64,000 nt of DNA. Source: an uncultured Alphaproteobacteria bacterium. Its GTDB lineage: Bacteria > Pseudomonadota > Alphaproteobacteria > Rhizobiales > Beijerinckiaceae. Where the stretch lies: contig OY969936.1 of NCBI GenBank assembly GCA_963704745.1, positions 2,047,527 through 2,111,526 of the forward strand. The letters run 5' to 3'. The notes beneath the pieces were generated by a model that was not told where the DNA came from, searched no databases, and saw nothing but the letters and a program-made list of their open reading frames with translations. The position numbers and the translations under genes were made by a program. This document shows, piece by piece, positions 21,707-50,513 of this stretch (within the stretch, counting starts at the first letter, position 1; each line of letters starts with the position of its first letter).

Positions 21707-21843
21707 GCTGTAATGTCCGATCATAGGCGGCTTGTGGCACGGGCCGCCCCCGGAGTGGGAGCAAGCGGTAGAATACCGCGACGAGGCGGACGTGGCTTCC
21801 AAGAGGCCGGCTTATTTGCGGCGAGCGGTGAGCAGGCTATCCC

Positions 21844-22530: not shown

Positions 22531-22539
22531 GTTGCTGCC

Positions 22540-23598: not shown

Positions 23599-23636
23599 GG
23601 TCGAGAAACGCTCCAAACGGGCGTTGAGGGAGGTTC

Positions 23637-24674: not shown

Positions 24675-24683
24675 GCACCATCA

Positions 24684-26939: not shown

Positions 26940-26954
26940 GCGAATGAACCAATC

Positions 26955-28235
26955 ATGCCGGACACCGCGATCGTCGTCGAAAATTTGTCCAAGAGCTACC
27001 TCATTGGACACCAATCCGGGTCAAACGGAAAGTACAAGTACAAGGCCCTGCGCGATGTCATGGGACGCGAAATCGGCAACTTTGCGCGCAAGGCTGCCGA
27101 TGTCGTTCGCGGCCGCCAGGTCGTGCAAGGGGATGCGATCGAAGAGTTCTGGGCCCTGAAGGATGTGAGCTTCGAGGTCAAGCAGGGAGAGGTTCTCGGC
27201 ATCATCGGCCGCAACGGCGCCGGCAAAAGCACGCTGCTCAAGATCTTGAGCCGGATCACCGAGCCGACCCGGGGGCGAGTGTTGTTGCGAGGGCGCGTTT
27301 CGAGCCTGCTCGAGGTCGGCACCGGCTTCCACCCCGAACTCACCGGCAGGGAGAACATCTTTCTCAATGGCGCCATCCTCGGCATGACGCAGCGGGAAAT
27401 CCGCAAGAAATTCGACGAAATCGTCGCCTTCGCCGAGGTGGAAAAATTTCTCGACACACCAGTGAAGCACTATTCGTCAGGAATGTATGTGCGCTTGGCG
27501 TTTGCCGTGGCCGCGCACCTCGAGCCGGAGATTTTGGTTGTGGGCGAGGTGCTGGCCGTCGGCGATGTCGAGTTTCAGAAGAAGTGCCTCGGAAAAATGG
27601 AAAACGTGGCGCGATTGGGAAGGACAGTGCTCTTTGTGAGCCATGATATTGATGCGGTTGAGAGGCTTACTTCACGATGCCTCTTGCTTTCAAATGGCCA
27701 ATTGCTGCTCCATGGATCGACTAGAGATGTGGTTACAAAATACCTGCGCGCCTCGCAATCTACGGAAGTCGACCTTGCCCAATATCGGTTGGCTTGCATT
27801 GCCGAGACCGTGTCCGTCAAACGAATCTGGACTGAGACAACATCCGGTCAAAATGCCAAGAGTTTCCGCCAAGGGGAATCGTTCCGAATTGGCGTTGAAA
27901 TCGACGTAAAGAATGTCGACGCGTGTGACCTCGCGATTGTAATAGAGAACAGCCGGCAACATGCAATTTTTGCTACACATCTCAGCGATCACGGTCTTCC
28001 TGTTAATGCAAAAGGCCGGCATACGTTCTATGTGAATATAGTTGAGCCAAACCTTAGGGGCGGTGAGTATCTTATCTCCTTTGCGGCTTTCTCCCTTGAC
28101 CAGAATACAGTTTTTGACCTGGTGAAATATATTCCAGGCTTTCAAGTTGCCGGCACATTGCACAAGACATTTCCCTGCGATAAAAGAGACGGAGATATTT
28201 ACATTCCAGTCAGGTGGCAGGTGAGTCAGTCATGA
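26955..28235 (+). CDS. wzt: ABC polysaccharide exporter ATPase Wzt with C-terminal domain; Walker B Asp replaced by Gly
   Basis: Walker A GRNGAGKST, GFHPELTGREN, YSSGMYVRLAF; Walker B reads ILVVGE rather than ILVVDE; H-loop VSHD; ~150-aa C-terminal extension. Confidence 0.92.
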   Translation: MPDTAIVVENLSKSYLIGHQSGSNGKYKYKALRDVMGREIGNFARKAADVVRGRQVVQGDAIEEFWALKDVSFEVKQGEVLGIIGRNGAGKSTLLKILSRITEPTRGRVLLRGRVSSLLEVGTGFHPELTGRENIFLNGAILGMTQREIRKKFDEIVAFAEVEKFLDTPVKHYSSGMYVRLAFAVAAHLEPEILVVGEVLAVGDVEFQKKCLGKMENVARLGRTVLFVSHDIDAVERLTSRCLLLSNGQLLLHGSTRDVVTKYLRASQSTEVDLAQYRLACIAETVSVKRIWTETTSGQNAKSFRQGESFRIGVEIDVKNVDACDLAIVIENSRQHAIFATHLSDHGLPVNAKGRHTFYVNIVEPNLRGGEYLISFAAFSLDQNTVFDLVKYIPGFQVAGTLHKTFPCDKRDGDIYIPVRWQVSQS

Positions 28236-29083
28236 TGTTGCTTAAAACTGCTATTAGAGCCGCAATACCCGTCGGTTTGCTTGATTTGCGTCGCGCATGG
28301 CAGAAAAGACGGGCGAAAAAGGAGCAATTACTTACACGTTTCAATTTCCACGATCTGCGACGTCAACGAATCGACACGGTTTCCAATACTTTTCTCGGCA
28401 CTCAATTCAAAGCGGACAACTACGAACGGGTAGTAGCCTTTCTAGTCGAGGCGGGCGTCACAGAGCATCACATTCGTGACGGCAGCATTCCGTTTGACTC
28501 ACTCAAATTTATTAACGATACCGTAATATCAAAACTCAATCCAAATAGGCCGTCATTCGTGTTGCATATAGGCAATTTCGTCGGCGTATCATTGGCTTAC
28601 CTTACCGGTAAAATAGTCGATTTGAATTCGCAATCCGTTGTCGTTGCTATTGATCCTAACATCACCCACAGGGGAATCGCAAATCCGCAGTCGCTCGCGA
28701 TGAAATTGCTTTGCAGTTGCGGATTGCAACGAAATGTCATCCCGATCACAGGATTCTCGATCGGAAAGAACATTAGCAACGATGGTGTCATTTTCGAAAA
28801 TTATGATCCTGTTCAGTCCTTTCTGGAAGAAGCCTCCTGCGAGAAAGTGCTCGATAACTTGAGCCTCTTTTTCAACGAGCAATTTGATGTTGCTTGCTTA
28901 GATGGCAATCACGAAGCAACCTATTTGCAGCGAGAAATTGAATCCATTTTGCCTCTCATTAAAAGAGATGGATGGATGATTTTTGATGACGTTGATCAAG
29001 GCTGGCCAGAAATCCAGGATGTATTCAAGAGGGTCGCTCGTGGGGATTGGACGCGATCGCAAGCGATGGGCGTGTTGGTATAG
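28232..29083 (+). CDS. Class I SAM-dependent methyltransferase (Methyltransf_24-like)
   Basis: VLHIGNFVGVS, VVAIDP, FDVACLDGNHE...DGWMIFDD; ATGA overlap with the wzt stop. Confidence 0.75.
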   Translation: MMLLKTAIRAAIPVGLLDLRRAWQKRRAKKEQLLTRFNFHDLRRQRIDTVSNTFLGTQFKADNYERVVAFLVEAGVTEHHIRDGSIPFDSLKFINDTVISKLNPNRPSFVLHIGNFVGVSLAYLTGKIVDLNSQSVVVAIDPNITHRGIANPQSLAMKLLCSCGLQRNVIPITGFSIGKNISNDGVIFENYDPVQSFLEEASCEKVLDNLSLFFNEQFDVACLDGNHEATYLQREIESILPLIKRDGWMIFDDVDQGWPEIQDVFKRVARGDWTRSQAMGVLV

Positions 29084-29117
29084 CGAGACTTGGTGGGCGA
29101 GATAATGGATAAATATA

Positions 29118-29873
29118 GTGCTTAGCAAAAGAGTTCAGATGAGAATAAACCGCTCGATCCGAGCAATTCTCAATGCTCTCGGCTACGATATTGTACGCGT
29201 GAAATCGCGAGGATCAGATGCGTCCATTAAGAAGCCAACTGATGCGTCCTATCTAGAAATTCTCTTGGATGAGTCCTTTCAGACTTCGATTGACGAGGTT
29301 CGCGATCTTACACTTCTCGATACGGCAAGGCTCGCAAATCTTTGGCAGCTGTGCAGAATGAGCAACCCTGCCGGCTCAATTATTGAGATTGGATCATACA
29401 AGGGCGGAGCCGCGCTCCATATGTCAAACAGTTGTCCGAACCGTCGTATCTTTGTGTGCGATACATTTGAAGGATTCGCAAACCTGCCGATCGATAGTCG
29501 GCTTGATCGACTGTTCTCCCGAAGCGATTTCGTGGACACGAGCCTAACGTTTGTGCAAGCAGCGTGGAAAGGCAAAAGGCGAAATGTGAATTGGCTAAAA
29601 GGCTACTTTCCGGAAAGTGCCGCGGGCGTAGGGATTCGCGATATCTCCTTTGCTCATATAGATGTCGATCTCTACAAGTCCACATTCGAATCGTTGGCGT
29701 TTTTGAGTCCCCACTTTATCGATAGATCGCTTGTTGTTTTGGACGATTATATGCGTGGTGTCGATGGTGTGATGAAAGCGACTAAAGACTTCCTAAACTT
29801 GCATCCCGAATGGATTTGCCTGCCAATTTACCCTGGTCAGGGACTCATGATTCATCGTAGCTGGTTTCGTTAA
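29118..29873 (+). CDS. TylF/NovP-like O-methyltransferase
   Basis: IIEIGSYKGG, CDTFEGF, KGYFPES, FAHIDVDLYKST, VVLDDY. Confidence 0.87.
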   Translation: MLSKRVQMRINRSIRAILNALGYDIVRVKSRGSDASIKKPTDASYLEILLDESFQTSIDEVRDLTLLDTARLANLWQLCRMSNPAGSIIEIGSYKGGAALHMSNSCPNRRIFVCDTFEGFANLPIDSRLDRLFSRSDFVDTSLTFVQAAWKGKRRNVNWLKGYFPESAAGVGIRDISFAHIDVDLYKSTFESLAFLSPHFIDRSLVVLDDYMRGVDGVMKATKDFLNLHPEWICLPIYPGQGLMIHRSWFR

Positions 29874-29903: not shown

Positions 29904-31316
29904 ATGTCGAAGACCTATTCATGCGTGATCATTGGCGCAGGGCCGACGGGTCTTGGTGCAGCGACGCAGCTCGTGTCTCTGGGAAATCGAGACTGGCGTC
30001 TCCTGGAAGCCGAAAGCCGGCCCGGCGGCTTGGCGCGGTCATTCAGAGATGACGCAGGTTTCACCTGGGACATCGGCGGGCATGTCCAATTTTCGCACTA
30101 CGAACTCTTCGACAGATCAATGCTTGACTGCCTCGGCGCGGACGGCTGGCTGCAGCATGAGCGTGAATCATGGATATGGATGCGCGATCAATTCATTCCT
30201 TATCCATTGCAGAACAATGTGCATCGGCTTCCGCCCGACGACTTGAACAAGTGCTTGCAGGGTCTTATCGCGATCACACGTGAGCCGAGAGCTAAGTCTG
30301 CCAATTTTGCCGAATGGATTGAAGCCACGTTTGGCGCAGGATTGGCCGAAGTATTCATGCGTCCATATAATGAAAAAGTCTGGGCGTTCCCTCCCGAAAC
30401 AATGAATGCCTCATGGGTGGGAGAACGTGTGGCGGTTACGGACTTATCCCGAGTATTAAAAAGCCTTGTTTACAACCATGACGACGTGTCCTGGGGGCCC
30501 AACAACCGCTTTCAATTTCCCAGAGCCGGAGGCACTGGAGCAATTTGGGAGGCTTGCGCTGCTTCCTTGCCGGCGGAGCTGCTCAATTTTTCCACGCGAG
30601 TGGTTGATATCAACCTTAAGGAGCGGAAGCTATATACATCTGATGGTTCGAAATATACGTACGACGTATTGATCTCTACGATGCCATTGCGAGAGCTGAT
30701 TGAGGTGACCCATCGTAGTGATTTACGCCCACTGGCCGATAAAGGGCTCTTGCATTCCAGCGTAAATATCGTCGGCATCGGCCTGCGAGGACGCCCGAAG
30801 CCAGAGTTAGCGAAGAAATGCTGGATGTATTTCCCGGAGGATAACTGCCCCTTCTATCGCGCAACGGTGTTTAGCAACTATTCACCGGCAAATGTTCCCG
30901 ATCCCACTCGTCATTGGTCCCTTATGTTCGAGGTATCCGAATCGCCGTATAAGCCGGTCGATCGAGCGTCGTTATGCGATGACGTTGTTTCTGGCGCGCT
31001 CAACACGCGCTTGATCGGCGATCGAAGCGATATCGTTTCCCTTTGGTCTTACCGGGCACGATATGGCTATCCGACGCCAAGCCTGTATCGCGATGAAGTT
31101 TTAGGCGAGCTGATCCCGGAATTTGAGCGCTGGGGAGTATATTCCCGCGGCCGATTTGGAATGTGGAAGTACGAAGTATCAAATCAAGATCACTCCTTCA
31201 TGCAGGGAGTGGAGGTGATCGAGCGGCTTTTAAATGGCCGCTCTGAAATGACCGCCTTCAACGCCGGTTTGGCAAACAGCAAGAAGCATCCTTGGCCATT
31301 CGAGGAGTGGGAGTAG
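29904..31316 (+). CDS. FAD-dependent oxidoreductase, eukaryote-type UDP-galactopyranose mutase homolog
   Basis: GAGPTGLGAA, DIGGHVQFSHY, PYPLQNN, FMRPYNEKVWA, WVGERVA, WGPNNRFQFPRAGGTGAIW, CWMYFPEDNCPFYRATVFSNYSP, GYPTP, SRGRFGMWKYEVSNQDHSFMQGVE, colinear with fungal/trypanosomatid UGM as recalled. Confidence 0.8.
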   Translation: MSKTYSCVIIGAGPTGLGAATQLVSLGNRDWRLLEAESRPGGLARSFRDDAGFTWDIGGHVQFSHYELFDRSMLDCLGADGWLQHERESWIWMRDQFIPYPLQNNVHRLPPDDLNKCLQGLIAITREPRAKSANFAEWIEATFGAGLAEVFMRPYNEKVWAFPPETMNASWVGERVAVTDLSRVLKSLVYNHDDVSWGPNNRFQFPRAGGTGAIWEACAASLPAELLNFSTRVVDINLKERKLYTSDGSKYTYDVLISTMPLRELIEVTHRSDLRPLADKGLLHSSVNIVGIGLRGRPKPELAKKCWMYFPEDNCPFYRATVFSNYSPANVPDPTRHWSLMFEVSESPYKPVDRASLCDDVVSGALNTRLIGDRSDIVSLWSYRARYGYPTPSLYRDEVLGELIPEFERWGVYSRGRFGMWKYEVSNQDHSFMQGVEVIERLLNGRSEMTAFNAGLANSKKHPWPFEEWE

Positions 31317-31320: not shown

Positions 31321-32370
31321 GTGCTCTATGTCCATTCCAAGTCCAACGGCGTCAATCCAGCCGCGAATACTATGAATCGGCCGTCGCGTAGCGCGCCGGA
31401 TCAAGGCTATGCTGACCTTGACTCCGCGGTGCCTCGAATTGAACCTCTTCCTCCTGGCATGAAGCGCCCGCTTTGGTCGGTTATGATTCCGACTTACAAT
31501 TGTGCAAGATATTTACGGGACACTTTGAGGAGCGTGTTAGCGCAAGATCTGGGACCGGACGAAATGCAGATCGAAGTCGTCGACGATTGCTCAACGCTCG
31601 ATGATCCTGCAGCGGTTGTGGAAGAAGAAGGCAACGGGCGAGTTCTCTTTTACCGAAAACAGACAAACGAGGGAGCGATCAGAAACTTTAATACTTGCAT
31701 CAAGCGGAGCAAGGGACATCTGATCCACATCTTGCACGGGGATGATTATGTTCATCCAGGATATTACAATAAAATATCAAATGTTGCGGCGCTAAATCCT
31801 GAAGTTGGATTACTTTCTGTAAGATGTTTTGTAATTGACGAAGACTCAGAGATTTCCGGTGTGTTCCAGCGCGTGAAAACGCTTGAAGTTGCAGGAAAGT
31901 CTGTTGTTCCCTTTTTATATTCTACGCCCATCGCGCCAGCCGGCGTAACAGTCCGGCGTCAAGCATATGAGAAGCTTGGCGGATATAGATTAGATCTAGT
32001 GCACGCCGCTGATTGTGAGCTGTTCGCCAGGGTTGTTACAGAACATGGCGGAATTATTCTAAAAGATATTTTGGCTTACTATCGAGTATTTGAGGGAAAC
32101 GACACATCTCGCCTCAGACAAACAGCAGAGAACATTCGTGACGTTTGCCGATTGAACGAGTTGTTTGCCAAGCGTTATGCAGAATTTTCAGTTGAATTGG
32201 GGCGCGAAAGAGCTATCGACATGGCGCGCCATCAATATTCTCGGTTTCTAAAATTGGGCAATGAGGAAGCTCTCGCAGCTCACCACAAGATTTTAGTCGA
32301 ATTAATGCCCTTCTTCCGAAAGTGCAAATGGCAACTAAAAAATGTGATCTTCCGCCGTGGCTTTCTGTGA
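31321..32370 (+). CDS. Glycosyltransferase family 2
   Basis: WSVMIPTYN, VVDDCST, ILHGDDY, ADCELF. Confidence 0.9.
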   Translation: MLYVHSKSNGVNPAANTMNRPSRSAPDQGYADLDSAVPRIEPLPPGMKRPLWSVMIPTYNCARYLRDTLRSVLAQDLGPDEMQIEVVDDCSTLDDPAAVVEEEGNGRVLFYRKQTNEGAIRNFNTCIKRSKGHLIHILHGDDYVHPGYYNKISNVAALNPEVGLLSVRCFVIDEDSEISGVFQRVKTLEVAGKSVVPFLYSTPIAPAGVTVRRQAYEKLGGYRLDLVHAADCELFARVVTEHGGIILKDILAYYRVFEGNDTSRLRQTAENIRDVCRLNELFAKRYAEFSVELGRERAIDMARHQYSRFLKLGNEEALAAHHKILVELMPFFRKCKWQLKNVIFRRGFL

Positions 32371-32424
32371 ATTACCGCCGCTTTCTTAGCTAATGCGCTT
32401 TTAGCACTTACCTGGGAGACGGCA

Positions 32425-33573
32425 TTGCGCAAGCCAATTCTCTTCATATCCAGCATGGGTGGCAGCCCCTGGGGAGGATCGGAGGAACTTTGGACAAGAA
32501 CGGCTGCCCGGCTTGCAAGGCAAGGTATCGCCGTCTCGGCAAGCGTCCACGGCTGGCCGCAGCTTGACCGCCGAATAAGCGAATTGTCGCGAGCCGGGGT
32601 CGACCTTCGCCCACGCCCCGTCAAACCTTCTTTGGTAACTCTCGCGCGACGATATGTGTCCGGTCAGACGCAAATTGTTTTCGACATCGACCGGTCATTT
32701 GGGAAAACGTCGCCGCGTCTCGTGCTCATCTCCAGCGGGTCTTTCCCCAGTTTGCAAATCGAACTGGTCGAAATGTGCATCGCAAAGCGTTGGCCATTGG
32801 CTATTGTGGCGCATGGGAATTTTCCTGGTTGGTGGCCTTCCGACCAACTGGCTGCTCGGTTCCGGAATGCGCTGCCATTTGCTCGCCGAATATTTTTTGT
32901 CTCAGAGGCCAATCGACTTCTTGCCCAGAGACAATCGGGATACGAGTTTGAAAATGCAGAGATCGTACGTAACCCACTGGTCATCGAGATTGCCTCCCCC
33001 CTGCCCTGGCCGCCGCAAGCAGGGCAGCAAGAGCTTCGCATGGCGTGCGTGGGCAATCTGTTTCCGACCGAAAAAGGCCAGGACATCCTGTTCGACGTCC
33101 TGGCCACCCCAAAATGGCGAGAACGGAATTGGCGGCTCACTCTTTACGGGAACGGCCCTAATCGCGGAATCCTTGAACAGCTGGTTGCCACGCTCAAACT
33201 GGAGGATCGGGTCTCGTTCGCGGGCTATGTCGCAGTCGACAAGATCTGGCGGGAAAACCACATCCTGCTCATGCCATCACGGTATGAAGGCATGCCATTG
33301 ACAATTGTCGAGGCGATGTTCTGTGGACGCCCTGTCGTCGCAACGAATGTCGGCGGCATTTCAGAATTGGTGAAGGAAAACCTGACAGGCTTCTTGGCTG
33401 AAGCCGCCGTAGCCAAATGTTTCGCCGATGCACTCGAGCGCATGTGGTCGGAGCGCGACAGGCTGGAGGAGATCGGAATGCTCGCTGCGGCCAGTATCCG
33501 AGAGTTTGTGCCAAAGGATCCTGTCGGCGAATTCGCGAACAAGCTGAGAACGCTAGCTAACATCCCAAAATAG
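32425..33573 (+). CDS. Glycosyltransferase family 4
   Basis: WGGSEELW, CVGNLFPTEKGQD, PSRYEGMPLTIVEAM, TNVGGISELV. Confidence 0.9.
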   Translation: MRKPILFISSMGGSPWGGSEELWTRTAARLARQGIAVSASVHGWPQLDRRISELSRAGVDLRPRPVKPSLVTLARRYVSGQTQIVFDIDRSFGKTSPRLVLISSGSFPSLQIELVEMCIAKRWPLAIVAHGNFPGWWPSDQLAARFRNALPFARRIFFVSEANRLLAQRQSGYEFENAEIVRNPLVIEIASPLPWPPQAGQQELRMACVGNLFPTEKGQDILFDVLATPKWRERNWRLTLYGNGPNRGILEQLVATLKLEDRVSFAGYVAVDKIWRENHILLMPSRYEGMPLTIVEAMFCGRPVVATNVGGISELVKENLTGFLAEAAVAKCFADALERMWSERDRLEEIGMLAAASIREFVPKDPVGEFANKLRTLANIPK

Positions 33574-33671
33574 CGCGATTGCGATTAGTGGTTAATGGCC
33601 CTTCTCTTTGACGCGAGCGCAGGCTTGAGTAACCGCACCAACGTTGATATACAAGAAAGCTATAGGGTTGG

Positions 33672-35372
33672 ATGCGAGCCGCACAGCTCACGGGTATTAT
33701 CGGCATGATAATCGCGGGGGACAGCCAGCCTAGCGAGGCTCGAGCCAACGAGGCAGCCCCGCCTTGCGATAGTGCGACCGTTGCGGTCATTATCCCTATC
33801 TTCAACTACGCACGTTTTCTCGCCGCCGCGATCGAAAGCGTGCTGGCACAGACTCACCCTGCCGACGAGATCATCGTCGTAGACGATGGGTCGACTGATG
33901 ATCCCGGGGCGATTGCAGCCAAATTTCCCGGTGTGCGCCTGATTCAACAGGAGAATCGCGGTCCGAATTCCGCCCGCAACGCCGGCCTTCGAAGTTGCAA
34001 GACGAGCCACCTCGTTTTCCTCGATGCGGACGATCGACTGCTGCCCAAAGCGCTCGAAGCTGGACTTGCTTGCATTGTAGACCGACCCGATTGCGCGTTC
34101 GTCTATGGTGGCTATCGCTTGATTTCAGAGAGTGGTGATCGTATCGGGCCCGATGTCCTCAAACCGATCGACGGCGACGCTCATTTAGCTTTCATACGCG
34201 AAAATCGAATTGGTTTACCCGCCGCCGCACTTTATCGGGTTGATTGCCTGCGATCCGTGAATGGGTTTGACGAAACACTCCGGCGGGCTGAAGACTTAGA
34301 GGTCTATCTTCGTCTTACACAGAAATACCCGATTGCAACGCATCCGGAGATCGTTGCCGAATATCGAAGACATGATCAAAACGTGTCGAGCAATTACGCT
34401 GAACAACTCAGGGCGGCGCTTCAGGTCCTCGACCTTCATGAATTGCGTATTGGCGCCGATGCTCGCACTCGCGCGGCCTTACGAGAAGGGCGAGCAAACA
34501 GGCGGAAGATGTACATCTCGCAGATGCTCGCAGCGGCCAATGTCCGCTGGCAAATGCGCCACGACATCGGAATTCTCGTGCGGGACGTAATGCAAGCCGC
34601 GCGATTGTCACCATTTTTCACCGTGCGCGCGTCAGTCGGCTTTCTCGGTCGTCGTGCCAGTCAAGTTCTCCCGAGACCAATTGTCCGACGGATCGAGGGG
34701 ATTCGGGGCCGACCCTATCCGATCCCAGTCGGATCGGTACGCTTCGGCGATCTCGGACGATTAACGCCTTTCGACCGCAGCTTCGGGTGGGGTCGGGGCA
34801 AGCCGGTCGATCGCGTCTACATTGAGCGATTTCTCGCTAAAAATGCAGCTGATATTCGCGGACACGTGCTGGAGCTGGGAGATAACGCTTACACCCGAGC
34901 GTTCGGTGATCAACGCGTCGAGCGTAGCGATATCCTTGGTGTCGAGGCAAACCCGAAAGCGACCATCATTGCCAATCTTGAACACGACGAGGCGCTGCCT
35001 GAAGCTACATTTGATTGTATTGTCCTGACGCAAGCGCTGCAGTATCTGTTCGATATCCGCCGCGCGACAGAGACCTTGTACCATGCGCTGAAACCGGGCG
35101 GCGTCTTGCTTGTGACCGCTCCCGGCATATCGCCGATGGAAGACTTTTGGCCATGGTATTGGACGCTCACTGCGGCAGCGCTGTACCGCCTCCTTGCAGA
35201 TCGATTTGGACAAGATGCTGTGAATGTCGAGGCGCACGGTAATGTCTACGTTGCGACTGCGTTGCTTTATGGTCTAGCAGTCGATGACCTTGATCCTGCC
35301 GCTCTCAACACCGACAATTCGAGATATCCGGTCACCGTAGCCGCCCGGGCGGTTAAGCGGAGGGATGCATGA
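33672..35372 (+). CDS. GT2 glycosyltransferase fused to a C-terminal methyltransferase-like domain
   Basis: VIIPIFN, VVDDGSTD, FLDADD, AEDLE; then GKPVDRVYIERFL...VLELGD...FDCIVLTQALQ...LKPGGVLLVTAPG. Confidence 0.88.
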   Translation: MRAAQLTGIIGMIIAGDSQPSEARANEAAPPCDSATVAVIIPIFNYARFLAAAIESVLAQTHPADEIIVVDDGSTDDPGAIAAKFPGVRLIQQENRGPNSARNAGLRSCKTSHLVFLDADDRLLPKALEAGLACIVDRPDCAFVYGGYRLISESGDRIGPDVLKPIDGDAHLAFIRENRIGLPAAALYRVDCLRSVNGFDETLRRAEDLEVYLRLTQKYPIATHPEIVAEYRRHDQNVSSNYAEQLRAALQVLDLHELRIGADARTRAALREGRANRRKMYISQMLAAANVRWQMRHDIGILVRDVMQAARLSPFFTVRASVGFLGRRASQVLPRPIVRRIEGIRGRPYPIPVGSVRFGDLGRLTPFDRSFGWGRGKPVDRVYIERFLAKNAADIRGHVLELGDNAYTRAFGDQRVERSDILGVEANPKATIIANLEHDEALPEATFDCIVLTQALQYLFDIRRATETLYHALKPGGVLLVTAPGISPMEDFWPWYWTLTAAALYRLLADRFGQDAVNVEAHGNVYVATALLYGLAVDDLDPAALNTDNSRYPVTVAARAVKRRDA

Positions 35373-36391
35373 GCCTTCGCAGCAGACTGAGAGTTCGTAC
35401 AAGATTGCGCTCGGCCATCCGTCGAGTCTGGCCGCCCAAGCCGAAGCCGCTGATCCTCATGTATCACCGGATCGCCGATGAGCCTGTCGATCCTTGGGCC
35501 CTCGCCGTGTCTCCGGCGCATTTTGAAGAGCATCTTCTTGTACTGCGCCGCACTCGCCACCCCCTTCCGCTTTCGGAATTCGTCCGCGCTCTAACGGCAG
35601 GTACGCTGCCACCGAATGCCGTGGCTTTGACCTTTGACGATGGTTATGTGGACAATCTTTTCGCAGGCAAGCCGCGGCTTGCGGCCGCGGACGTGCCGGC
35701 GACCGTCTTTCTCGCCACTGGATATCTTGACGGCTCAGAGGAAATTTGGTCCGACGAGCTTGCGAGACTCATTCTCCTCGGAGACGGCCCTCAAAGTTTT
35801 GAGCTTCCAGTGGTCGGCGAGTTGATGCTCTTCGAGCTCGGAACCGATCCACCCGCGCGGGGGGACGGCACCACACCCGTCGAATCGTTGCAAAGACGGC
35901 TTGGCGCTTTGCGAAAGATACGGGAGGTTTTACGCGTGCTTGACGACGAAAAGCGTCGACCAGTTATGGCGCAGCTTCGCTCGATCTTCGGAGGTCAGGG
36001 TCATAGCGCGAACGTTGCCCGGGCGATGACAAGCCAAGAAGTCAAAACGCTCGTGGCCGATGGCCTAGTGACGATAGGCGCACACACCGTCACCCACCCG
36101 GTCCTCCCAAAATTGGCCGCAGCCACATGTCACCGTGAAATCAGCCAAAGCAAAATTGCTTGTGAGTCCTTGATCGGAGCACCAGTGGCGGCATTCGCTT
36201 ATCCATACGGAGACTTCGATACCCAGGCACGTGAGATAGTGAGAGCCAGCGGCTTCCTCTTTGCCTGTTCCACGCAACGAGGACCGGTGGGCGCGGCTTC
36301 AGACATCTTTGCTTTACCACGCATCCACGTCAGCAACTCGAACGGCGATACATTTGAACAAGCCCTTCGTTCAGTATCAGCGTCATATTGA
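35369..36391 (+). CDS. Polysaccharide deacetylase (CE4/NodB)
   Basis: ILMYHRI, LTFDDGYVDN, ATVFLATG, IGAHTVTHPVL, FAYPYG. Confidence 0.92.
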   Translation: MSLRSRLRVRTRLRSAIRRVWPPKPKPLILMYHRIADEPVDPWALAVSPAHFEEHLLVLRRTRHPLPLSEFVRALTAGTLPPNAVALTFDDGYVDNLFAGKPRLAAADVPATVFLATGYLDGSEEIWSDELARLILLGDGPQSFELPVVGELMLFELGTDPPARGDGTTPVESLQRRLGALRKIREVLRVLDDEKRRPVMAQLRSIFGGQGHSANVARAMTSQEVKTLVADGLVTIGAHTVTHPVLPKLAAATCHREISQSKIACESLIGAPVAAFAYPYGDFDTQAREIVRASGFLFACSTQRGPVGAASDIFALPRIHVSNSNGDTFEQALRSVSASY

Positions 36392-36698
36392 CGAGAACGA
36401 GATTCCATAATCCATCACAAAGCATATGGCACTGATGCGTGACGCCTAACCCCGAACGCGTATAGCGCTCTCCGGTTCAAGCATAGTCAAGCGTAAATAC
36501 ATCGCCAACAATCGCTCGCGGGCGCGATGGCGCCGGAAGTGCAGGTTGTTAAGCGAAGGAGCGGGAACTCAACCCGCGATGTCGAGCGCGGTTTCTTTGC
36601 TTAGCTTACCTTATATCTTTCTTAACATGTTTACATCGCCAATGTAGCCTGCTACCATGGCAAACCCGACGGAAGTCAGAAGTCAGGCGGGACGCAAA

Positions 36699-37901
36699 AT
36701 GAAAATCATTGTTTTGGGCGGTGATGGCTTTTGCGGATGGCCTTCAGCACTGCATCTGTCGGCCAACGGGCACCAAGTTGCGATCGTCGACAATCTGTCG
36801 CGACGCAAAATCGATATTGAACTTGAGGTTGAATCGCTCACGCCGATTGCCCCGCTCGGCGTCAAACTCAAAGCATGGGCAGAAACCACAGGAACTTATA
36901 TTCCATTTTTCCAATTCGATATCGCCGAACACTACCATAGACTTCTTACTCTCTTCGAGGAGCTGAGGCCGGACGCAGTCGTGCACTTCGCCGAGCAGCG
37001 CGCTGCGCCTTACTCGATGAAATCGTCGTTCCACAAGCGATACACGGTCAACAACAACCTAAATGCGACCAACAATGTTCTGGCCGCTATCGTCGAGACG
37101 GGTAACGACATACACCTCGTTCATCTCGGTACCATGGGCGTCTACGGCTACGGCACGGCGGGAATGAAAATCCCGGAAGGCTATCTTTCGGTGAAGGTGG
37201 ATACGCCGGCCGGCGAGACAATCAGTCAGGAAATTCTTTACCCGGCAAACCCGGGCAGTATTTATCACATGACCAAGACCCAGGATCAGTTGATGTTCGC
37301 GTTCTACGCTAAGAACGACGGCGTCCGCATCACCGACTTGCATCAGGGAATCGTCTGGGGAACACAAACTGCACAAACAAAACTTGACGATCGCTTGATC
37401 AACCGCTTCGACTATGATGGCGATTACGGTACCGTGCTCAACCGCTTCTTGATGCAGGCCGCCCTCAACCATCCGCTCACGGTACATGGCACGGGCGGAC
37501 AGTCCCGGGCATTCATCAACATTCAGGACACTGTCCGCTGCATCGAACTTGCCGTCCTTCACCCGCCGCAGCGCGGCGAGCGGGTCAACATTCTCAACCA
37601 AATGACTGAAGTTCACCGGGTGCGCGACTTGGCGAAGATGGTCTCCGAGATGACCGGAGTTCCGATCTCCTATGTCAAGAACCCGCGAAACGAAAGCGAC
37701 GAAAACGATCTTCACGTCGAAAACAGCCGATTGCGTAACCTCGGGCTGGCCCCGATCACCCTTGAACTGGGCCTCATGCGCGAAGTGACGGAGGTCGCGC
37801 AAAAATACGCTTATCGATGCGACACCACGAAGATTCCTTGTACCTCGCTTTGGCGGCCCGAGCGAGAAGCCGAGGTTGTACCGTTACAGGCAAGCGGCTG
37901 A
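36699..37901 (+). CDS. sqdB: UDP-sulfoquinovose synthase
   Basis: VLGGDGFCGWP, VDNLSRR, VHFAEQRAAPYSM, HLGTMGVYGY, YHMTK, TDLHQGIVWGT, RFDYDGDYGTVLNRF, HPLTVHGTGGQ; alternative start ATG 36657. Confidence 0.93.
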   Translation: MKIIVLGGDGFCGWPSALHLSANGHQVAIVDNLSRRKIDIELEVESLTPIAPLGVKLKAWAETTGTYIPFFQFDIAEHYHRLLTLFEELRPDAVVHFAEQRAAPYSMKSSFHKRYTVNNNLNATNNVLAAIVETGNDIHLVHLGTMGVYGYGTAGMKIPEGYLSVKVDTPAGETISQEILYPANPGSIYHMTKTQDQLMFAFYAKNDGVRITDLHQGIVWGTQTAQTKLDDRLINRFDYDGDYGTVLNRFLMQAALNHPLTVHGTGGQSRAFINIQDTVRCIELAVLHPPQRGERVNILNQMTEVHRVRDLAKMVSEMTGVPISYVKNPRNESDENDLHVENSRLRNLGLAPITLELGLMREVTEVAQKYAYRCDTTKIPCTSLWRPEREAEVVPLQASG

Positions 37902-38021
37902 CGTTCGGCGAGGAGTTCGCACAGCGGACTATTTTGCTAAGCCTGCAAAGCGGCGCGCCTTGCCGACGTGATTGTAACTCCAGTAGGCAGATAGTGCCGG
38001 TGGCTCAGGTTAGCCCGACAC

Positions 38022-38464
38022 ATGACGAACTTTAGCAAGATTTCTCATTACCGGGGGCCGCGGCTTTATCGGAAGCAATCTGATTGAGCTGCTTCGATCG
38101 CGGGCGGATTGCAAGATTTCGCGTTCTTGACGACGAATCCACGGGATCAAAAACCGACATTATGGATTTCGATGTTCATTTTATGCACGGCGATATCACC
38201 GATGCCGCCACGATAAAGGAAGCTCTCAAGGACACCGACCTCGTAGTTCACCTGGCTGCCGACACTCGCGTCGTCGATTCGATCGCCGCGCCGCAATGGA
38301 ACTTCTGCACGAACGTCTATGGAACTTTCAATCTGCTTTGTCGAATGAAGGAGGTTGGGATCCGCCGCATTGTCAATACATCGACGGGCGGCGCAATCCT
38401 CGGAGAGGTTCCGCCCGTCCTCGCAAAAAAGCGAGCGTCTTGCTACCCCTACCTTTCCGTTTGA
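38022..38464 (+). pseudogene. Truncated, frameshifted NAD-dependent epimerase (GalE-like)
   Basis: Removing two extra Ts (both in AAGATTT) gives MTNFSKILITGGRGFIGSNL...RVLDDESTG...VHLAADTRVVDSI...NVYGTFNLL...STGGAILGEVPP; the YxxxK half is missing. Confidence 0.8.
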
Positions 38465-38576: not shown

Positions 38577-39347
38577 CTATTGCCACGGCCGATCCGGCCT
38601 TTCGACGCCCGGAATAACAACATCCATGCCCCTGTCGCGGAGCGTTCTTGCAAAGACCGCCCGAGGATAGGCCTTCGCAGATTTAAGGGCCAAGACCATG
38701 CGGTTTTGCGCCGCCGGCGCGGCACTGGCGAAGATGTCCGCCGTCTCCGAATACGCCCAGCCCGTGTCCACCAATTTCACAAATTCATCAATCGCATCAT
38801 TCTGAAGATCGGCGGGTAGCTGCTTAAAAGCCGCAATGGCGATTCCATTACGTCGCAGGCCAATCCATCCCTCATTCGGGCCCAGCATGTAAGACAGGCG
38901 CAGGTAGTTTGCATTATTTGGCTGGATCCCTCGCTTGGTTGCATCGAGCCAAAATAAGGTCAACCATGCGAAGGAATCCGATGGCGCGCATAAGAGCGCC
39001 TTTTGCCCCGATTCATATACGGGCTGATAGGCGGCATCGATGCGTTTCTCATCTTTTGCCGCGATCGCCTCATTCAGAATTGCAAGACGAAGTATCATGG
39101 CGCTATGCAGTTCGGCCGGGGTACAAAATGAAGAATCCTCGGCCATCTTCAGTTGACGCGCTCTGTCTTGAAGAACCCGCCCGCTAAATGTGTGGCCCTG
39201 CAGGAGCTCGGAAGCGAGCCGGTTCAGCGGAACTTGCCGCCAGAACAACGGCAGCAGGAAGATACCCCAACTGACAGCACCCAATCCCATACAACAGACA
39301 AAAATCCGCACCAGAATTAAGCTTGCAGTCCTTCCAGTGACCTTCAT
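38577..39347 (-). CDS. Hypothetical protein coupled to wzc
   Basis: 256-aa ORF, N-terminal TM, helical body (PSDSFAWLTLFW, YLRLSYMLGPNEGWI); 4-nt overlap with the wzc stop. Confidence 0.75.
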   Translation of the reverse strand: MKVTGRTASLILVRIFVCCMGLGAVSWGIFLLPLFWRQVPLNRLASELLQGHTFSGRVLQDRARQLKMAEDSSFCTPAELHSAMILRLAILNEAIAAKDEKRIDAAYQPVYESGQKALLCAPSDSFAWLTLFWLDATKRGIQPNNANYLRLSYMLGPNEGWIGLRRNGIAIAAFKQLPADLQNDAIDEFVKLVDTGWAYSETADIFASAAPAAQNRMVLALKSAKAYPRAVFARTLRDRGMDVVIPGVERPDRPWQ

Positions 39348-41671
39348 TCGCTATAGCCGTATCGCTGATAATTTCCGTGGTAGTAGTAGCTATAGCCTCG
39401 ACCGTCGAAGCGTCCCAACAACCTCAGATTAACTTTATTGAGCACGACTCCGAGCAGATGATCGTAAACCCCTCTTGCCGAGTTCAGAGTCTGTTCGACA
39501 AAATCGATCCTCGTTTTCCCCCACTCAACGACATATATGTAGCTATCGACGAAGCCCGTGGAGGCTCGAACGTCTACAATAGGCATCAACGGCGCCAAAT
39601 CCACGAAGATGTAGTCATAATCGCTGCGCAAGCTCTCAAAGAACGTCCGCATATGTTCCGACGCCAAAATCTCGCTCGAATGGGCCAACCGGCCCTTCAT
39701 AAACACGGGCAGGAATTCCATATCGGTGGCTTCATCCAACCAAATGGTGTCTTCGAGAGTCGATTTCTGCAAGACAACGTCAAGCAAGCCGCTGGTACCG
39801 CCAAGTGCAAAAGAGCGTGACAACGACGGATTCCTAAGGTCGCAATCAACTAGTAATGTCCGGGCCCCCGCGTGCGCCGCTAACCTTGCAACCGCGAGAG
39901 CTATGGTGGATTTTCCTTCACTTGGAATCGATGACGTGAAGCCAATGATCTTGCAGCCAGCCTGCGCCGGGCTTTGATCGACAGTAATTTTGATTGATCG
40001 AATTGCCTCGGTGAAGATCGAGAACGGTGAGTCAACGATCGCCGAATGTACCCCAGGCGCAAACGTAATCGATCCCTGATCTTTCTTAAGAGACTTCGTA
40101 TTGGCGATCTCGGCGCTCCACTCCGAAGCCCTGCTCCCCGCCTTCCCGTGTTTCCCACCCAGAGCCGGAACTAACGCAATGCATTCCGTCTGGAGAATTT
40201 CCTCGACTTGACCGCGAGTCCGAAATACGCGGTCTGCGACCTCGCGCCACGCTCCCACTAAAGTGCCGAGCGCCAGACCGAGGACAGTGGCCAGCCCCAG
40301 CGCAAGCGTTGTTTTTGGGTGGCTCTTGGATGGCGGGCGTGTCGCAGCGGAAACTATCCGGGCATCCGTAATCGGGAACGACTGCTGCTGCACGGATTGC
40401 ATATAACGCTGCAAGAAATTGTCATATAAGGCTTGGTAGGATTCAGCATTAGTCTGGAGCTCGCGGAGAGCAACCTGTGCTTCGTTCGTAACCTGCGATT
40501 GCGATACAGACTTATCGAGCTCCTCCTGGGTGCTATTTTCACGCTGCTTAGCAATTGCATAGTCGCTCTTGTAGGTCTCAGCGATACGCCGCAACTCATT
40601 CCGGATCGAATCCTCGATCTCGCGCATCTGATTGCGCAGATTGACAACCGCAAGGTGATTGATTCCATACTTCGGCACCCAATCTTCTTCACGCGCGGCT
40701 AATGTAAGGTATTGTGTGCGAAGGCTGCTGATCACCGGGTTTTTGAGAACGTCGGTAACTGTGGCATCAACTACCGCTTCTGGAGAATTGCTCGTGAGAA
40801 TCATTTGAATACGATCTAGCCGGGCGCGCATCTCTGCGGTCTGCGCCCGAGCTTGGACGAGTTGGCTGTTGAGCTCAGCCATCTGCTGCTCATTTATCGT
40901 CCGCCCGCCGGCATCGACCATCTCGTGCTTGTTCTTAAAGTCGACGACAGCACGCTCAGCGACCGTGGCCTGCTCTCGCAATTGGCGGAGCCGATCTTGC
41001 AACCACACCGCCGCGCGCTTGAGCGTTTGATATTTGGCGTCGAGTTGATCATCGATATACGCGTCGGCGACAGCGTTTGCGATCCGGGCCGCGCGGTCTG
41101 GGTCGTGCGATTCGAAATTGATTGCGATCAGGTAGGTAAGGCCGATACGCCGGACACTTAAATGACTTCGAAAGATACCCAGAGCCTGACGGGCCTGAGC
41201 ATATTCTGAAGTCGGCTCGCTGGAGCCGAACAGATTGCTGAGAATTCCCATGAGCGAGCTGATCACCCCGCCGCCCGGACCGGAGAACTCAGGATCCTGC
41301 ACGAGGTTGAGTTTCTTGACGACTGCTGCCGCGATCTTCTCGGACTTGAGAATCTCAACTTGGCTCTCAACGGCTCCGGGATCGATCGCGATCGGCAGCT
41401 CCGAACCCTGCTGCTGGAACAGGTGGGCGCCTTGCGTGTCGATAAGGAGGGTCGCGGTGGCGGTGTAGCTCGGCGGCGTCGTGAAGACGTATACGAAGCC
41501 CATCGCAATGATGATCGCGGCGACTACGCCTATCACCGCGTATTGCCGCTGAACGAAAGCCACAGTCGACTGATAGGCAAACCGAAAGGTCTCAGGCGAC
41601 ACCGTTTCAGTCGAGTCGCCGACGCTCCGGACGGACGAAGAGTGTTCAGTCTGGAGCATATAACTATCCAT
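39344..41671 (-). CDS. wzc: Wzc/ExoP polysaccharide co-polymerase, tyrosine autokinase
   Basis: Wzz N-terminal TM, coiled coils, SAATRPPSKSHP + TM2, Walker A SSIPSEGKST, LVDCDLRNP, FVDLAP, C-terminal Tyr cluster YSYYYHGNYQRYGY. Confidence 0.95.
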   Translation of the reverse strand: MDSYMLQTEHSSSVRSVGDSTETVSPETFRFAYQSTVAFVQRQYAVIGVVAAIIIAMGFVYVFTTPPSYTATATLLIDTQGAHLFQQQGSELPIAIDPGAVESQVEILKSEKIAAAVVKKLNLVQDPEFSGPGGGVISSLMGILSNLFGSSEPTSEYAQARQALGIFRSHLSVRRIGLTYLIAINFESHDPDRAARIANAVADAYIDDQLDAKYQTLKRAAVWLQDRLRQLREQATVAERAVVDFKNKHEMVDAGGRTINEQQMAELNSQLVQARAQTAEMRARLDRIQMILTSNSPEAVVDATVTDVLKNPVISSLRTQYLTLAAREEDWVPKYGINHLAVVNLRNQMREIEDSIRNELRRIAETYKSDYAIAKQRENSTQEELDKSVSQSQVTNEAQVALRELQTNAESYQALYDNFLQRYMQSVQQQSFPITDARIVSAATRPPSKSHPKTTLALGLATVLGLALGTLVGAWREVADRVFRTRGQVEEILQTECIALVPALGGKHGKAGSRASEWSAEIANTKSLKKDQGSITFAPGVHSAIVDSPFSIFTEAIRSIKITVDQSPAQAGCKIIGFTSSIPSEGKSTIALAVARLAAHAGARTLLVDCDLRNPSLSRSFALGGTSGLLDVVLQKSTLEDTIWLDEATDMEFLPVFMKGRLAHSSEILASEHMRTFFESLRSDYDYIFVDLAPLMPIVDVRASTGFVDSYIYVVEWGKTRIDFVEQTLNSARGVYDHLLGVVLNKVNLRLLGRFDGRGYSYYYHGNYQRYGYSE

Positions 41672-44642: not shown

Positions 44643-44799
44643 TTCCTGACGGCTACCCCTACCTAACTGAAAGGGCCAGCCATTGACGATTTTCTCATAT
44701 CAATGGGGGAAATTCCGAAGGCTCGTAAACAGGTCAACGCAGTTCAGTTCAACAGCTCATCTGCGTGCGCACAAGGGAAAAGACGGGACGCGTCTTAAA

Positions 44800-45651
44800 A
44801 TGACAGATGCTCGATTGCCACCTATCCCTGCGCGGTCCAGCCAATTCTTGTTGGAACACGTTCCTGTTGCCGCTCCTTGCCGTTCCGCCGCCCTAATCGA
44901 AGGGTTGCCTATCAGCTTAACGCCCCACGAGGAAGTCCTGGCCGAGATCGACTATACTATCGCGATTCGCGAAGTGGGACATTACATCTCGATCACGAAT
45001 ACGGAATTTATGTACCACGGGCTCCGCATTCCGGCGCATGGCGAATATATTCGCAATGCAGATTTTTCGTTGTGCGACGGGGTCGGCGTTATCATCGCCG
45101 GCTGGGCTTGGGGGCACCGCATCCGTCGCTTTAACGGTCCCGTGCTGCAGCTCGAGTGCTCCCGTTATGGAATCACTAAAGGTTGGCGGCACTTCTTCTA
45201 TGGTGGCAAGGAGGGGGTCGCCGAGGAAATGGCCCGACAGTTGAAGGTCATGTTTCCAGGCTTAATTGTATGCGGCATCATCCAACCGCCTTTCCGTGAG
45301 TTAACTTCGGAGGAAGAGGAAGGCATGATCCAACAGATAAACGCCAGTCGGCCTGATATCGTCTGGGTCGGATTAGGTCTCCTTAAGCAGGAGCGCTGGA
45401 TCGCCAAGCACCTGGGATGCATCGAAGCGCCATGGATGGTAGGTGTGGGGGCAGCGTTCGACTACCACGCTGGCGTCGTACCTTGGGCACCGCCAGTGTT
45501 GCGGGCCCTCGGCTTGGAGTGGCTGTTCCGCCTGATCATACAGCCGCGCCTTCGCGCAAAGCGCTACTGCTGGTCGGCAGTCTATGTTGTGCAGAGCTTC
45601 GTCCGCGGACTTGTTACGGCTCAATTTCTACGCAAACCCAAGACATGCTGA
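44800..45651 (+). CDS. WecB/TagA/CpsF family glycosyltransferase
   Basis: ADFSLCDGVG, RFNGP, FFYGGKEG, PPFR, IVWVGLGLLKQERW, VGVGAAFD, GLEWLFRL; start estimated at ATG 44800. Confidence 0.92.
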   Translation: MTDARLPPIPARSSQFLLEHVPVAAPCRSAALIEGLPISLTPHEEVLAEIDYTIAIREVGHYISITNTEFMYHGLRIPAHGEYIRNADFSLCDGVGVIIAGWAWGHRIRRFNGPVLQLECSRYGITKGWRHFFYGGKEGVAEEMARQLKVMFPGLIVCGIIQPPFRELTSEEEEGMIQQINASRPDIVWVGLGLLKQERWIAKHLGCIEAPWMVGVGAAFDYHAGVVPWAPPVLRALGLEWLFRLIIQPRLRAKRYCWSAVYVVQSFVRGLVTAQFLRKPKTC

Positions 45652-47798: not shown

Positions 47799-48370
47799 TC
47801 GATACGATTCGTTCGTTGCAATTGAGATATCGGCGGTCTTGAAAGTCATCCTTTCAGCGAGGAGCAAAAGTCTCCAAAAAGGCCGCGCCGGCTAAATTTT
47901 GCCTCGTAAAGCTCCGGGCAGAGATCATGATGGTCGAAGATCAAGCTCTTGCGGCCGAGGCCTTTGAAAATCAGCCCGACGATAAAAATCAAGTCGGGAG
48001 GATTGCAGGCATGAATGACTTCAAAGCCGGTCTGTTTAGCGACTTTCAAAGCTAGGACGAGCTGCCAGAACAGTGCGAGTCCATATTCCAAGACATAGCC
48101 GATGGCTCCGTTGGCATCATGCGAAATACCATGACGGTGCACATAAATGCCATCAATGATTTCATGGGATGATTCATACTCGGGCGCTTTAGGGCTGATA
48201 ACTGACACTGTATATCCGGCATCGCGCAAGGTGGTTGCCTCAGACCAGACGCGCCGATCAAATGGAACCGGAAGGTTCTCGACAATGATCAGTGCTCGGC
48301 TGCCCGCCCGCGACACAACAGCATCAACCAAAGCTAATTGGGCATTGTCGTTCGCCATCATCGGCTCCAC
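47799..48370 (-). pseudogene. 5' fragment of a GT4 glycosyltransferase, frameshifted
   Basis: IIVENLPVPFDRRVWSEA...IHACNPPD...FDHHDLCPELY; adding one base at the A5 run 47876-47880 gives GLFWRLLLLAERMTFKTADISIATNESYR, then homology stops. Confidence 0.82.
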
Positions 48371-50469: not shown

Positions 50470-50513
50470 CTCGCCCGCACCGCACTATAAGGCGACGAGT
50501 ACGAGCTGTTCGC

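Follow-up and report, generated by a model that had tools for sequence, protein, structure and literature searches.

A predicted UDP-sulfoquinovose synthase gene in a surface-polysaccharide locus of an uncultured alphaproteobacterium, a candidate source of sulfoquinovose for a bacterial glycan

Sulfoquinovose is familiar from the thylakoid lipid sulfoquinovosyldiacylglycerol (SQDG), from a few bacteria that produce SQDG, and from archaeal N-glycans. What use would a bacterium have for a uridine diphosphate (UDP)-sulfoquinovose synthase gene that lies among genes for a surface polysaccharide? The question is raised by sqdB in a stretch of 64,000 nucleotides, here called the window (contig OY969936.1, positions 2,047,527 to 2,111,526, assembly GCA_963704745.1), from an uncultured alphaproteobacterium of the family Beijerinckiaceae. 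A first-pass annotation of this DNA had proposed that one of the glycosyltransferases (GTs) of the cluster transfers sulfoquinovose to a surface glycan. The settings of sulfoquinovose in the literature that we found are SQDG, made through SqdX/SQD2 or through SqdD/SqdC/SqdA, and archaeal glycoproteins, by way of Agl3; our literature search, which was incomplete, found no report of sulfoquinovose in a bacterial O-antigen, lipopolysaccharide (LPS), capsule, or exopolysaccharide (EPS). To our knowledge, sqdB is undescribed in ABC-transporter O-antigen loci.

We consider delivery of UDP-sulfoquinovose into the polysaccharide made by this locus to be the best single explanation of the sequence data, and we give it about an even chance of being correct. 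This reading rests on linkage and on one recurrence, the presence of another sqdB in the related cluster L088, which is the strongest evidence for the use of sulfoquinovose in a polysaccharide. A more specific version, in which sulfoquinovose is built into a Wzm/Wzt O-antigen-like polymer or an EPS and is needed so strongly that capture or replacement of sqdB cassettes took place independently, at the same position, in related loci, we hold more tentatively, as a possibility that falls slightly short of even.

The sqdB gene and its predicted product

The gene in question is the following.

36699 to 37901, plus strand: sqdB, predicted UDP-sulfoquinovose synthase, 400 amino acids (aa), assigned by SQD1 structure match, relatives, and conserved motifs

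The open reading frame (ORF) extends from 36657 to 37901 on the plus strand, the extent reported in the first-pass annotation, and an in-frame upstream ATG at 36657 would give a protein of 414 aa. Because nucleotide homology with relatives starts exactly at the ATG at 36699 (MKIIVLGG), and because the source genome's own gene call for sqdB (P0002) is also 400 aa, the true start is most likely 36699 and not 36657. The frame first described is open, and its start should probably be moved.

SqdB matches the Arabidopsis SQD1 structures 1i24 and 1qrr with an E value of 6e-94 across residues 16 to 400, with 44% identity over aligned columns. Thousands of proteins are 70 to 88% identical to it, many of them labeled UDP-sulfoquinovose synthase by JGI; SqdB of Sinorhizobium meliloti shares 64% identity with it, and SqdB of Rhodobacteraceae about 75%. 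The S. meliloti sqdBDC operon has been found experimentally to make sulfoquinovosyl glycerol and SQDG (bioRxiv 10.1101/2022.08.18.504050). The catalytic triad of SQD1 consists of T145, Y182, and K186, its NAD-binding motif is G-XX-G-XX-G, and the archaeal enzyme Agl3 is inactivated by mutation of H95, R101, M145, Y182, or K186 (PMC4388408). SqdB from the window keeps the catalytic triad (Thr in LGTMG, Tyr and Lys in YHMTK), and its GGDGFCG aligns with the NAD-binding motif of SQD1; in the alignment with 1i24 and 1qrr, the counterparts of the Agl3-essential residues are also retained (His in VHFAEQRAAPY, Arg in EQRAAPY, Met in LGTMG). When 119 relatives are aligned with it, 197 columns reach 97% conservation or more, and SqdB matches 196 of them. 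The sole departure is Lys at residue 56 of the 400-aa form (36864 to 36866), where the 119 relatives and SQD1 have Arg, and this change is conservative.

Against the NCBIfam equivalog NF041015 (UDP-sulfoquinovose synthase), SqdB scores 330.8 bits and so does not reach the cut-off of 575. Given the many bacterial relatives at 70 to 88% identity that carry the JGI label, we read this shortfall as reflecting the scope of the model and not a different function. Nonsynonymous divergence (dN) between sqdB and its clade relatives is 0.065 to 0.086, equal to that among the relatives (0.075 to 0.084), with synonymous divergence (dS) saturated; therefore, sqdB appears to be evolving without acceleration. 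In addition, sqdB and both of its junctions are identical in the short-read contigs of four independent runs (Logan contigs from freshwater-sediment metagenome runs). The structure match, the conserved columns, and the short-read contigs all bear out the earlier description of sqdB as intact, and its sequence indicates that SqdB is almost certainly an active UDP-sulfoquinovose synthase.

The polysaccharide locus and its closest relative

We sought relatives of the locus with two of its genes, one encoding a GT2 glycosyltransferase fused to a methyltransferase domain (GT2-MT) and the other encoding a GT4 glycosyltransferase (GT4a). The closest related cluster is L088 (Logan run SRR28211905), whose proteins are identical to those of the window at 86% (Wzm and the glycosyltransferase GT4b), 85% (deacetylase), 81% (GT2-MT fusion), 78% (GT4a), 77% (a 345-aa protein), and 56% (Wzt). 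Nucleotide homology, at 84.7%, ends 11 nucleotides past the deacetylase stop codon. Immediately next in L088 is an intact sqdB on the opposite strand, followed by the 3' end of a homolog of a gene that encodes a 256-aa protein in the window. Because the deacetylase gene lies before sqdB and the homolog of the 256-aa gene lies beyond it in L088, the sqdB slot is the same in the two loci.

The occupants of that slot differ. SqdB of L088 is 73% identical to that of the window in protein and 71% in DNA, and it falls outside the 35-member clade to which the SqdB of the window belongs. Between the window and L088, dS is 2.4 and dN is 0.20 for sqdB, versus a dS of 0.36 to 0.50 and a dN of 0.07 to 0.11 for the GT4b, GT2-MT, and deacetylase genes. 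A non-orthologous, oppositely oriented sqdB at one slot points to replacement or independent capture. Because two unrelated copies are held at the same slot of related loci, the comparison suggests selection for having sqdB at this locus. Divergence from L088 is mosaic: beside the 0.36 to 0.50 of these three genes, dS reaches 0.85 in Wzm, 1.4 in GT4a, and 1.7 in the 256-aa gene, a pattern that suggests a more recent exchange of the 4-kb block adjoining sqdB (32424 to 36402 of the window, 8707 to 12731 of L088) than of the rest of the locus.

The locus lies in a low-GC island at 20.3 to 49.6 kb (53.9% GC versus 61.6% in the flanks), and the flanks carry housekeeping genes: those for pyruvate dehydrogenase E2 and E3, lipoyl synthase, a two-component system, aspartyl-tRNA synthetase, and RNase D. 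Its features, with the source of each assignment, are listed below.

20357 to 25949, plus strand: left part, with a Wzy_C/O-antigen-ligase-like gene, a methyltransferase, GT2a, the 345-aa protein without assigned function, and GT4a (Pfam, NCBIfam)
26115 to 28235, plus strand: Wzm (ABC-2 permease) and Wzt (ATPase with the C-terminal carbohydrate-binding domain Wzt_C) (Pfam ABC2_membrane, ABC_tran, Wzt_C)
28214 to 29873, plus strand: two sugar O-methyltransferase-like genes, Methyltransf_24 and TylF (Pfam)
29904 to 31316, plus strand: UDP-galactopyranose mutase homolog, eukaryote type (PDB 4dsg, E value 3e-146)
31321 to 32370, plus strand: GT2b glycosyltransferase, variable part of the cluster (Pfam); absent from L088
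32425 to 33573, plus strand: GT4b glycosyltransferase, candidate sulfoquinovosyltransferase (Pfam and PDB); 63% identical to its counterpart in the related locus L089
33672 to 35372, plus strand: GT2-MT, GT2 fused to an S-adenosylmethionine (SAM) methyltransferase domain (Pfam)
35369 to 36391, plus strand: polysaccharide deacetylase, last gene of the GT operon (Pfam Polysacc_deac_1)
36574 to 36658, plus strand: terminator-like hairpin (36574 to 36591) and promoter-like site (36630 to 36658) (consensus scan)
38577 to 41671, minus strand: convergent operon of a Wzz/GNVR/P-loop chain-length regulator (775 aa) and the 256-aa membrane protein (Pfam)
44683 to 45651, plus strand: WecG/TagA-family (GT26) glycosyltransferase (Pfam, NCBIfam)

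The sqdB slot begins just past the deacetylase gene and ends at the convergent operon, beyond which lie the WecG/TagA-type GT, a GFO/IDH/MocA oxidoreductase, and more GT4 sequences. Five GTs are encoded upstream of sqdB (GT2a, GT4a, GT2b, GT4b, and the GT2-MT fusion, which belongs to a widespread family usually paired with a deacetylase), and the locus has three methyltransferases besides the fusion. The best match of GT4a is an EPS GT4 model, and those of GT4b and GT4c are other polysaccharide or thiol-pathway GT4 models. Wzt matches the structures 8dku and 7k2t (E value of 9e-66), which are named only "ABC transporter" in the PDB and which we take to be an O-antigen exporter. Structure 4dsg, named UDP-galactopyranose mutase in the PDB, is presumably the trypanosomatid enzyme; the homolog in the window is not a classical bacterial Glf, and it is placed in the variable part of the cluster. 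Overall, the predicted biochemical roles of its products mark the locus as one for a surface polysaccharide of the O-antigen type that depends on an ABC transporter. The first-pass annotation is upheld both in its description of the upstream block, where Pfam finds GT2, GT4, the GT2-methyltransferase fusion, and the polysaccharide deacetylase, and in its placement of sqdB within a polysaccharide cluster, which also encodes Wzm/Wzt, methyltransferases, and a chain-length regulator. The methylated, possibly galactofuranose-containing polymer that it envisaged fits the methyltransferases, the GT2-MT fusion, and the mutase homolog.

We propose that the product of SqdB would be the donor for one glycosyltransferase of the locus, with GT4b and GT2b as the best candidates. 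The Pfam GT4 domains of GT4b (a retaining GT-B family) are the same as those of a SqdX-like protein encoded next to sqdB in another locus, L055, and SqdX and SQD2 themselves belong to GT4. Sulfoquinovose would be built into an undecaprenyl-linked glycan on the cytoplasmic face, and the same glycan would also be methylated and contain galactofuranose; its export would proceed through Wzm/Wzt, and its attachment at the cell surface would fall to the ligase-like Wzy_C protein. What the sequences show directly is the identity and intactness of SqdB, the genes of the locus and their arrangement, the limits of the sqdB cassette, and a second sqdB at the corresponding slot of L088; that the locus consumes UDP-sulfoquinovose, which GT would use it, and where in the polymer the sugar would sit are inferred.

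Several observations weigh against this proposal. The recurrence of sqdB comes from one other locus, L088. L089, with core genes 57 to 80% identical to those of the window, has no sqdB within 10 kb, and none of 80 distant metagenome GT2-MT loci (30 to 59% identity), about half of which also show a deacetylase gene, has sqdB in its flanks. No GT strictly co-varies with sqdB among the clusters that we compared, and sqdB is no long-standing, integral part of this family of clusters. It stands where two operons meet, the kind of site at which foreign DNA typically lands, and the hairpin and promoter-like site between the deacetylase gene and sqdB are weak evidence that it forms its own transcription unit, the regional counts of such elements being near shuffled expectation. 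The cassette that carries sqdB is truncated, the usual partners of this SqdB lineage (a short-chain dehydrogenase/reductase [SDR], a 281-aa GT2, and a DegT aminotransferase) are absent as intact genes, and sqdB could be a hitch-hiking remnant. Finally, the absence of a sulfolipid synthase was established for the 64-kb window of a 3.15-Mb genome, and many sqdB genes in other genomes also lack an adjoining synthase; because this is common among sqdB loci, the missing SQDG synthase next to sqdB is weak evidence. The earlier proposal that sulfoquinovose is used in a glycan thus gains from the sqdB in the L088 slot and loses from the truncated cassette and from the distant relatives without sqdB.

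The left half of the locus is common to three further clusters, L170 to L172, at 55 to 89% identity, with no sqdB in view there. GT4a and the 345-aa protein were considered as sqdB-specific partners and rejected, since genes 78 to 86% identical to them occur in these clusters. The earlier claim that one GT of the cluster acts as the sulfoquinovosyltransferase therefore could not be narrowed to any one enzyme. L170 is cut by insertion sequence (IS) and transposase fragments (2078 to 3321, 16749 to 17027, and 20928 to the end of the locus), with a UDP-glucuronate-decarboxylase-like fragment at its end that is called jointly with a transposase; loci of the L170 type are turning over actively.

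Some further irregularities occur in the island of the window. GT4a (24684 to 25949, plus strand) is annotated at 277 aa (P0296), versus approximately 420 aa for the ORF and its homologs, and its annotated start is probably miscalled. A 174-aa ORF at 47846 to 48370 (minus strand), with only the N-terminal GT4 domain, adjoins a full GT4 gene at 48489 to 49607 (minus strand) and is either a broken GT4 gene or an assembly frameshift. At the right border of the island, a 236-aa ORF at 50316 to 51026 (plus strand) matches the EcoEI type I restriction R subunit in the C-terminal domain only and may be a remnant marking the island edge. A megablast search of plasmids with the part of the window from 30 to 42 kb gave no match.

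Sulfolipid synthesis and the neighborhoods of bacterial sqdB genes

The product of SqdB may instead feed SQDG or another sulfoquinovosyl lipid through an unlinked synthase, with the position of sqdB at the edge of the polysaccharide genes an accident of horizontal transfer. We regard this as unlikely but well worth weighing, given that all experimentally characterized bacterial SqdB proteins serve SQDG (bioRxiv 10.1101/2022.08.18.504050). Its appeal is increased by the identity of the SqdB of the window to those of S. meliloti and Rhodobacteraceae, and by the promoter-like site and upstream terminator-like hairpin that the cassette has of its own.

We searched the 64-kb window for synthase genes with references from S. 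meliloti, whose locus has the order sqdB-sqdD-(sqdC), and with a SqdX-like reference, a 381-aa GT4 encoded approximately 100 bp after sqdB in loci of Deinococcaceae (L055) and Trueperaceae. SqdD was not found by tblastn (best E value of 1.3), and Pfam scans of about 45 window ORFs showed no GT8 domain. S. meliloti SqdC gave generic SDR similarity only (E values of 0.04 to 0.11), and no SqdC ortholog was found. The SqdX-like GT4 of L055, L079, and L072, itself a candidate SqdX, has no counterpart among the window ORFs. No acyltransferase domain turned up among the scanned ORFs, a result of domain scans with no SqdA-reference search made. The window is therefore without sqdD, sqdC, or sqdX, as first noted. 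In the S. meliloti Ak57 locus L173 (CP090106.1, a 3.7-Mb sequence labeled pSymB), the sqdC region at 6097 to 7159 has no annotated protein and is covered by two overlapping frames, an apparent frameshift or sequencing error.

To the lack of a synthase in 64 kb can be added two further points that disfavor a lipid product. A non-orthologous sqdB recurring in the L088 slot is hard to explain by chance, and reports of the SqdD/SqdC/SqdA route are limited to Rhodobacterales and some families of Hyphomicrobiales, mainly Rhizobiaceae (bioRxiv 10.1101/2022.08.18.504050). The loci of other bacteria bear on this point in both directions. We surveyed 88 sequences with a SqdB at least 69% identical to that of the window (87 loci of other genomes or metagenomes, and the window itself) by tblastn with the reference proteins. 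SqdD is absent from the window and from all 87 loci, and the SqdX-like GT4 directly follows sqdB in only 3 to 4 of the 88 sequences. Therefore, sqdB is often unlinked from a recognizable synthase, as in L086, where it lies among housekeeping genes. Among close relatives of the SqdB of the window, sqdB stands beside LPG_synthase_TM and large GT4 genes, which would fit glycolipid synthesis.

The survey also recovered neighbors of other kinds. PAPS (3'-phosphoadenosine 5'-phosphosulfate) reductase is adjacent to or fused with SqdB in 12 loci, an SDR at least 54% identical to the partner SDR of the SqdB lineage is present in about 11, the 281-aa GT2 in 7, and DegT in 4. A Pfam census of 134 sqdB-flanking genes yielded GT2 (9), GT4 (7), SDRs (6), sugar nucleotidyltransferases (6), and sulfotransferases (6). 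In several Actinomycetota, PAPS reductase is fused to SqdB or encoded directly upstream of it (P0061, 714 aa; L009, L020, L031, L035, L037, and L046), an arrangement that would couple sulfite production to UDP-sulfoquinovose synthesis. On a plasmid of Rhodobacteraceae bacterium M382 (L174, CP081099.1, 82426 to 95580), sqdB is found with genes for a sulfotransferase, PAPS reductase, GT2, a 661-aa GT4, GalE, and an SDR; the sqdB context here, as also in L014, is not SQDG-like. Roles for UDP-sulfoquinovose other than in SQDG may be widespread, and with GT2/GT4, sulfotransferase, and PAPS reductase genes as neighbors, the assumption that sqdB means sulfolipid may often be wrong.

Origin of the sqdB cassette and relation to known systems

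Directly after sqdB, the window carries one more feature.

38022 to 38464, plus strand: truncated SDR remnant, with approximately 131 homologous codons, then an unrelated tail and a stop codon

This is the N-terminal part (about 131 of 319 residues) of an extended SDR that follows sqdB in close relatives. In tblastn, the SDR of the relative L081 matches 38022 to 38452 at 63 to 69% identity over SDR residues 2 to 145. The assembly has one extra T at 38041, lacking in the contigs of four short-read runs, and one at 38117, lacking in those of two, both in TTT runs. Removal of both yields a clean 146-codon ORF from the ATG at 38022 that is 69% identical to the L081 SDR and collinear with SDR residues 1 to about 131, after which it diverges. 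As these independent short-read contigs lack the extra T bases, both frameshifts are errors of the assembly, probably from homopolymers in long reads. The truncation, by contrast, is real; it removes the catalytic YxxxK and the whole C-terminal substrate-binding domain. Other apparent frameshifts or fragments in the window may also be artifacts. What had been described as a broken GalE-like fragment is indeed truncated, but it derives from the partner SDR and is not specifically GalE. Two other identifications were rejected: a multiply frameshifted pseudogene, since the short-read contigs have neither frameshift, and an SqdC ortholog, since SqdC shows generic SDR similarity only and shares 34% identity, over 107 residues, with the intact partner SDR found in relatives.

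The tree places the SqdB of the window in its 35-member clade with closest relatives, at 82 to 88% identity, from metagenome-assembled genomes. In four independent contigs of such relatives (L081, L084/L085, L087, and L001), an intact extended SDR of 311 to 319 aa directly follows sqdB and is mostly followed in turn by the 281-aa GT2 and the DegT aminotransferase; close by are LPG_synthase_TM genes, genes for large membrane proteins without annotation, and long GT4 genes. None of the module genes beyond the SDR, including the 281-aa GT2 and DegT, has left a trace in the window. Across the cassette (approximately 36695 to 38415), nucleotide identity to relatives is 75 to 80% for sqdB and 67 to 71% for the SDR, with synonymous sites saturated. 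By this comparison, sqdB arrived as a cassette with the first 131 or so codons of its partner SDR, and, because of the 75 to 80% identity and the saturated dS, the arrival does not appear to be recent from the donors sampled.

These findings raise the possibility that an sqdB-SDR-GT2-DegT module has decayed and left sqdB stranded only recently, with no current pathway to serve and with too little time elapsed for the gene itself to have been lost. The truncated SDR, the loss of the module GT2 and DegT, and the signs of turnover in such islands (the N-terminal GT4 fragment at 47846 to 48370 and the IS elements in related loci) are what such a history would leave. We nevertheless consider it improbable, in that the ORF is intact, matches all but one of the conserved columns, and shows no excess dN; moreover, the 75 to 80% identity with saturated dS implies that sqdB has stayed intact over a long period, and L088 also keeps sqdB at this slot.

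In uncultured Alphaproteobacteria, a module of sqdB, the 319-aa SDR, the 281-aa GT2, DegT, and an approximately 540-aa FAD-protein-like gene recurs (L081:10001-15907, L084:10001-13681, L085, L087, L051, L052, and L001), often with GT4 genes of 600 to 700 aa nearby. The module resembles a route to a modified sulfo-sugar or to a polyprenyl-linked decoration. UDP-sulfoquinovose from the window could also be destined for an acceptor not made by the locus (a glycosylated protein, the lipid A/core, or periplasmic glucans), with the enzymes encoded elsewhere. An archaeal protein N-glycan provides a precedent (PMC4388408), and the 281-aa GT2, LPG_synthase_TM, and large membrane proteins of relatives would resemble a polyprenyl-phosphate-sugar decoration system. 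We think this very unlikely for the window, from which those components are absent and whose scanned ORFs show no oligosaccharyltransferase-like domain. The window shares with the module its clade of SqdB and the first codons of the SDR, and it differs from the module by the absence of the GT2, DegT, FAD-protein-like, LPG_synthase_TM, and large membrane protein genes.

Incorporation of sulfoquinovose into the polysaccharide of the locus, the reading that we prefer, can be set beside three kinds of known systems. The first are the SQDG pathways of plants and cyanobacteria (SQD2/SqdX) and of Rhodobacter and Sinorhizobium (SqdD, SqdC, SqdA), which use an enzyme of the same family with all essential residues kept in the window; in the window, however, sqdB lies in an ABC-transporter polysaccharide locus and not in a lipid operon, and the synthase genes are absent from the window. 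The second is the system of Sulfolobus acidocaldarius, in which Agl3 supplies UDP-sulfoquinovose to a glycan (the N-glycan of the S-layer and archaellin) and not to a lipid; its gene is likewise clustered with glycan-assembly genes, and in both cases the product is proposed for a lipid-linked oligosaccharide and not for a membrane lipid (PMC4388408). The window differs in coming from a bacterium, in its predicted Wzm/Wzt polysaccharide export instead of AglB-dependent protein N-glycosylation, and in a SqdB that falls below the NF041015 cut-off and matches bacterial SqdB-type proteins best. The third are the O-antigen systems of the Escherichia coli O8/O9a type and the Aquifex Wzm-Wzt structures. 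With these the window shares Wzm, a Wzt with Wzt_C, several cytoplasmic GTs, possible chain-capping methyltransferases, a WecG/TagA-type GT, and a ligase-like Wzy_C, whereas sqdB and the PCP-2a-like (polysaccharide copolymerase) Wzz/tyrosine-kinase-type gene, the latter more typical of EPS or capsular polysaccharide, set it apart.

If our reading is true, the locus would carry out sulfoquinovose glycoconjugate synthesis, a known kind of pathway, here feeding a bacterial Wzm/Wzt polysaccharide, and its product would be the first bacterial polysaccharide that contains sulfoquinovose. Such a polymer would extend the sulfoquinovose glycoconjugates by a new class and would give the cell surface a chemistry, anionic and free of phosphate, that is also new. 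The locus would offer a defined place in which to seek a sulfoquinovosyltransferase for a bacterial polysaccharide, the first of its kind. Sediments and soils would have in the polymer a source of sulfoquinovose that is neither phototrophic nor a lipid, so that heterotrophic bacteria of these habitats would count among the producers of sulfoquinovose, with relevance to the sulfur cycle.

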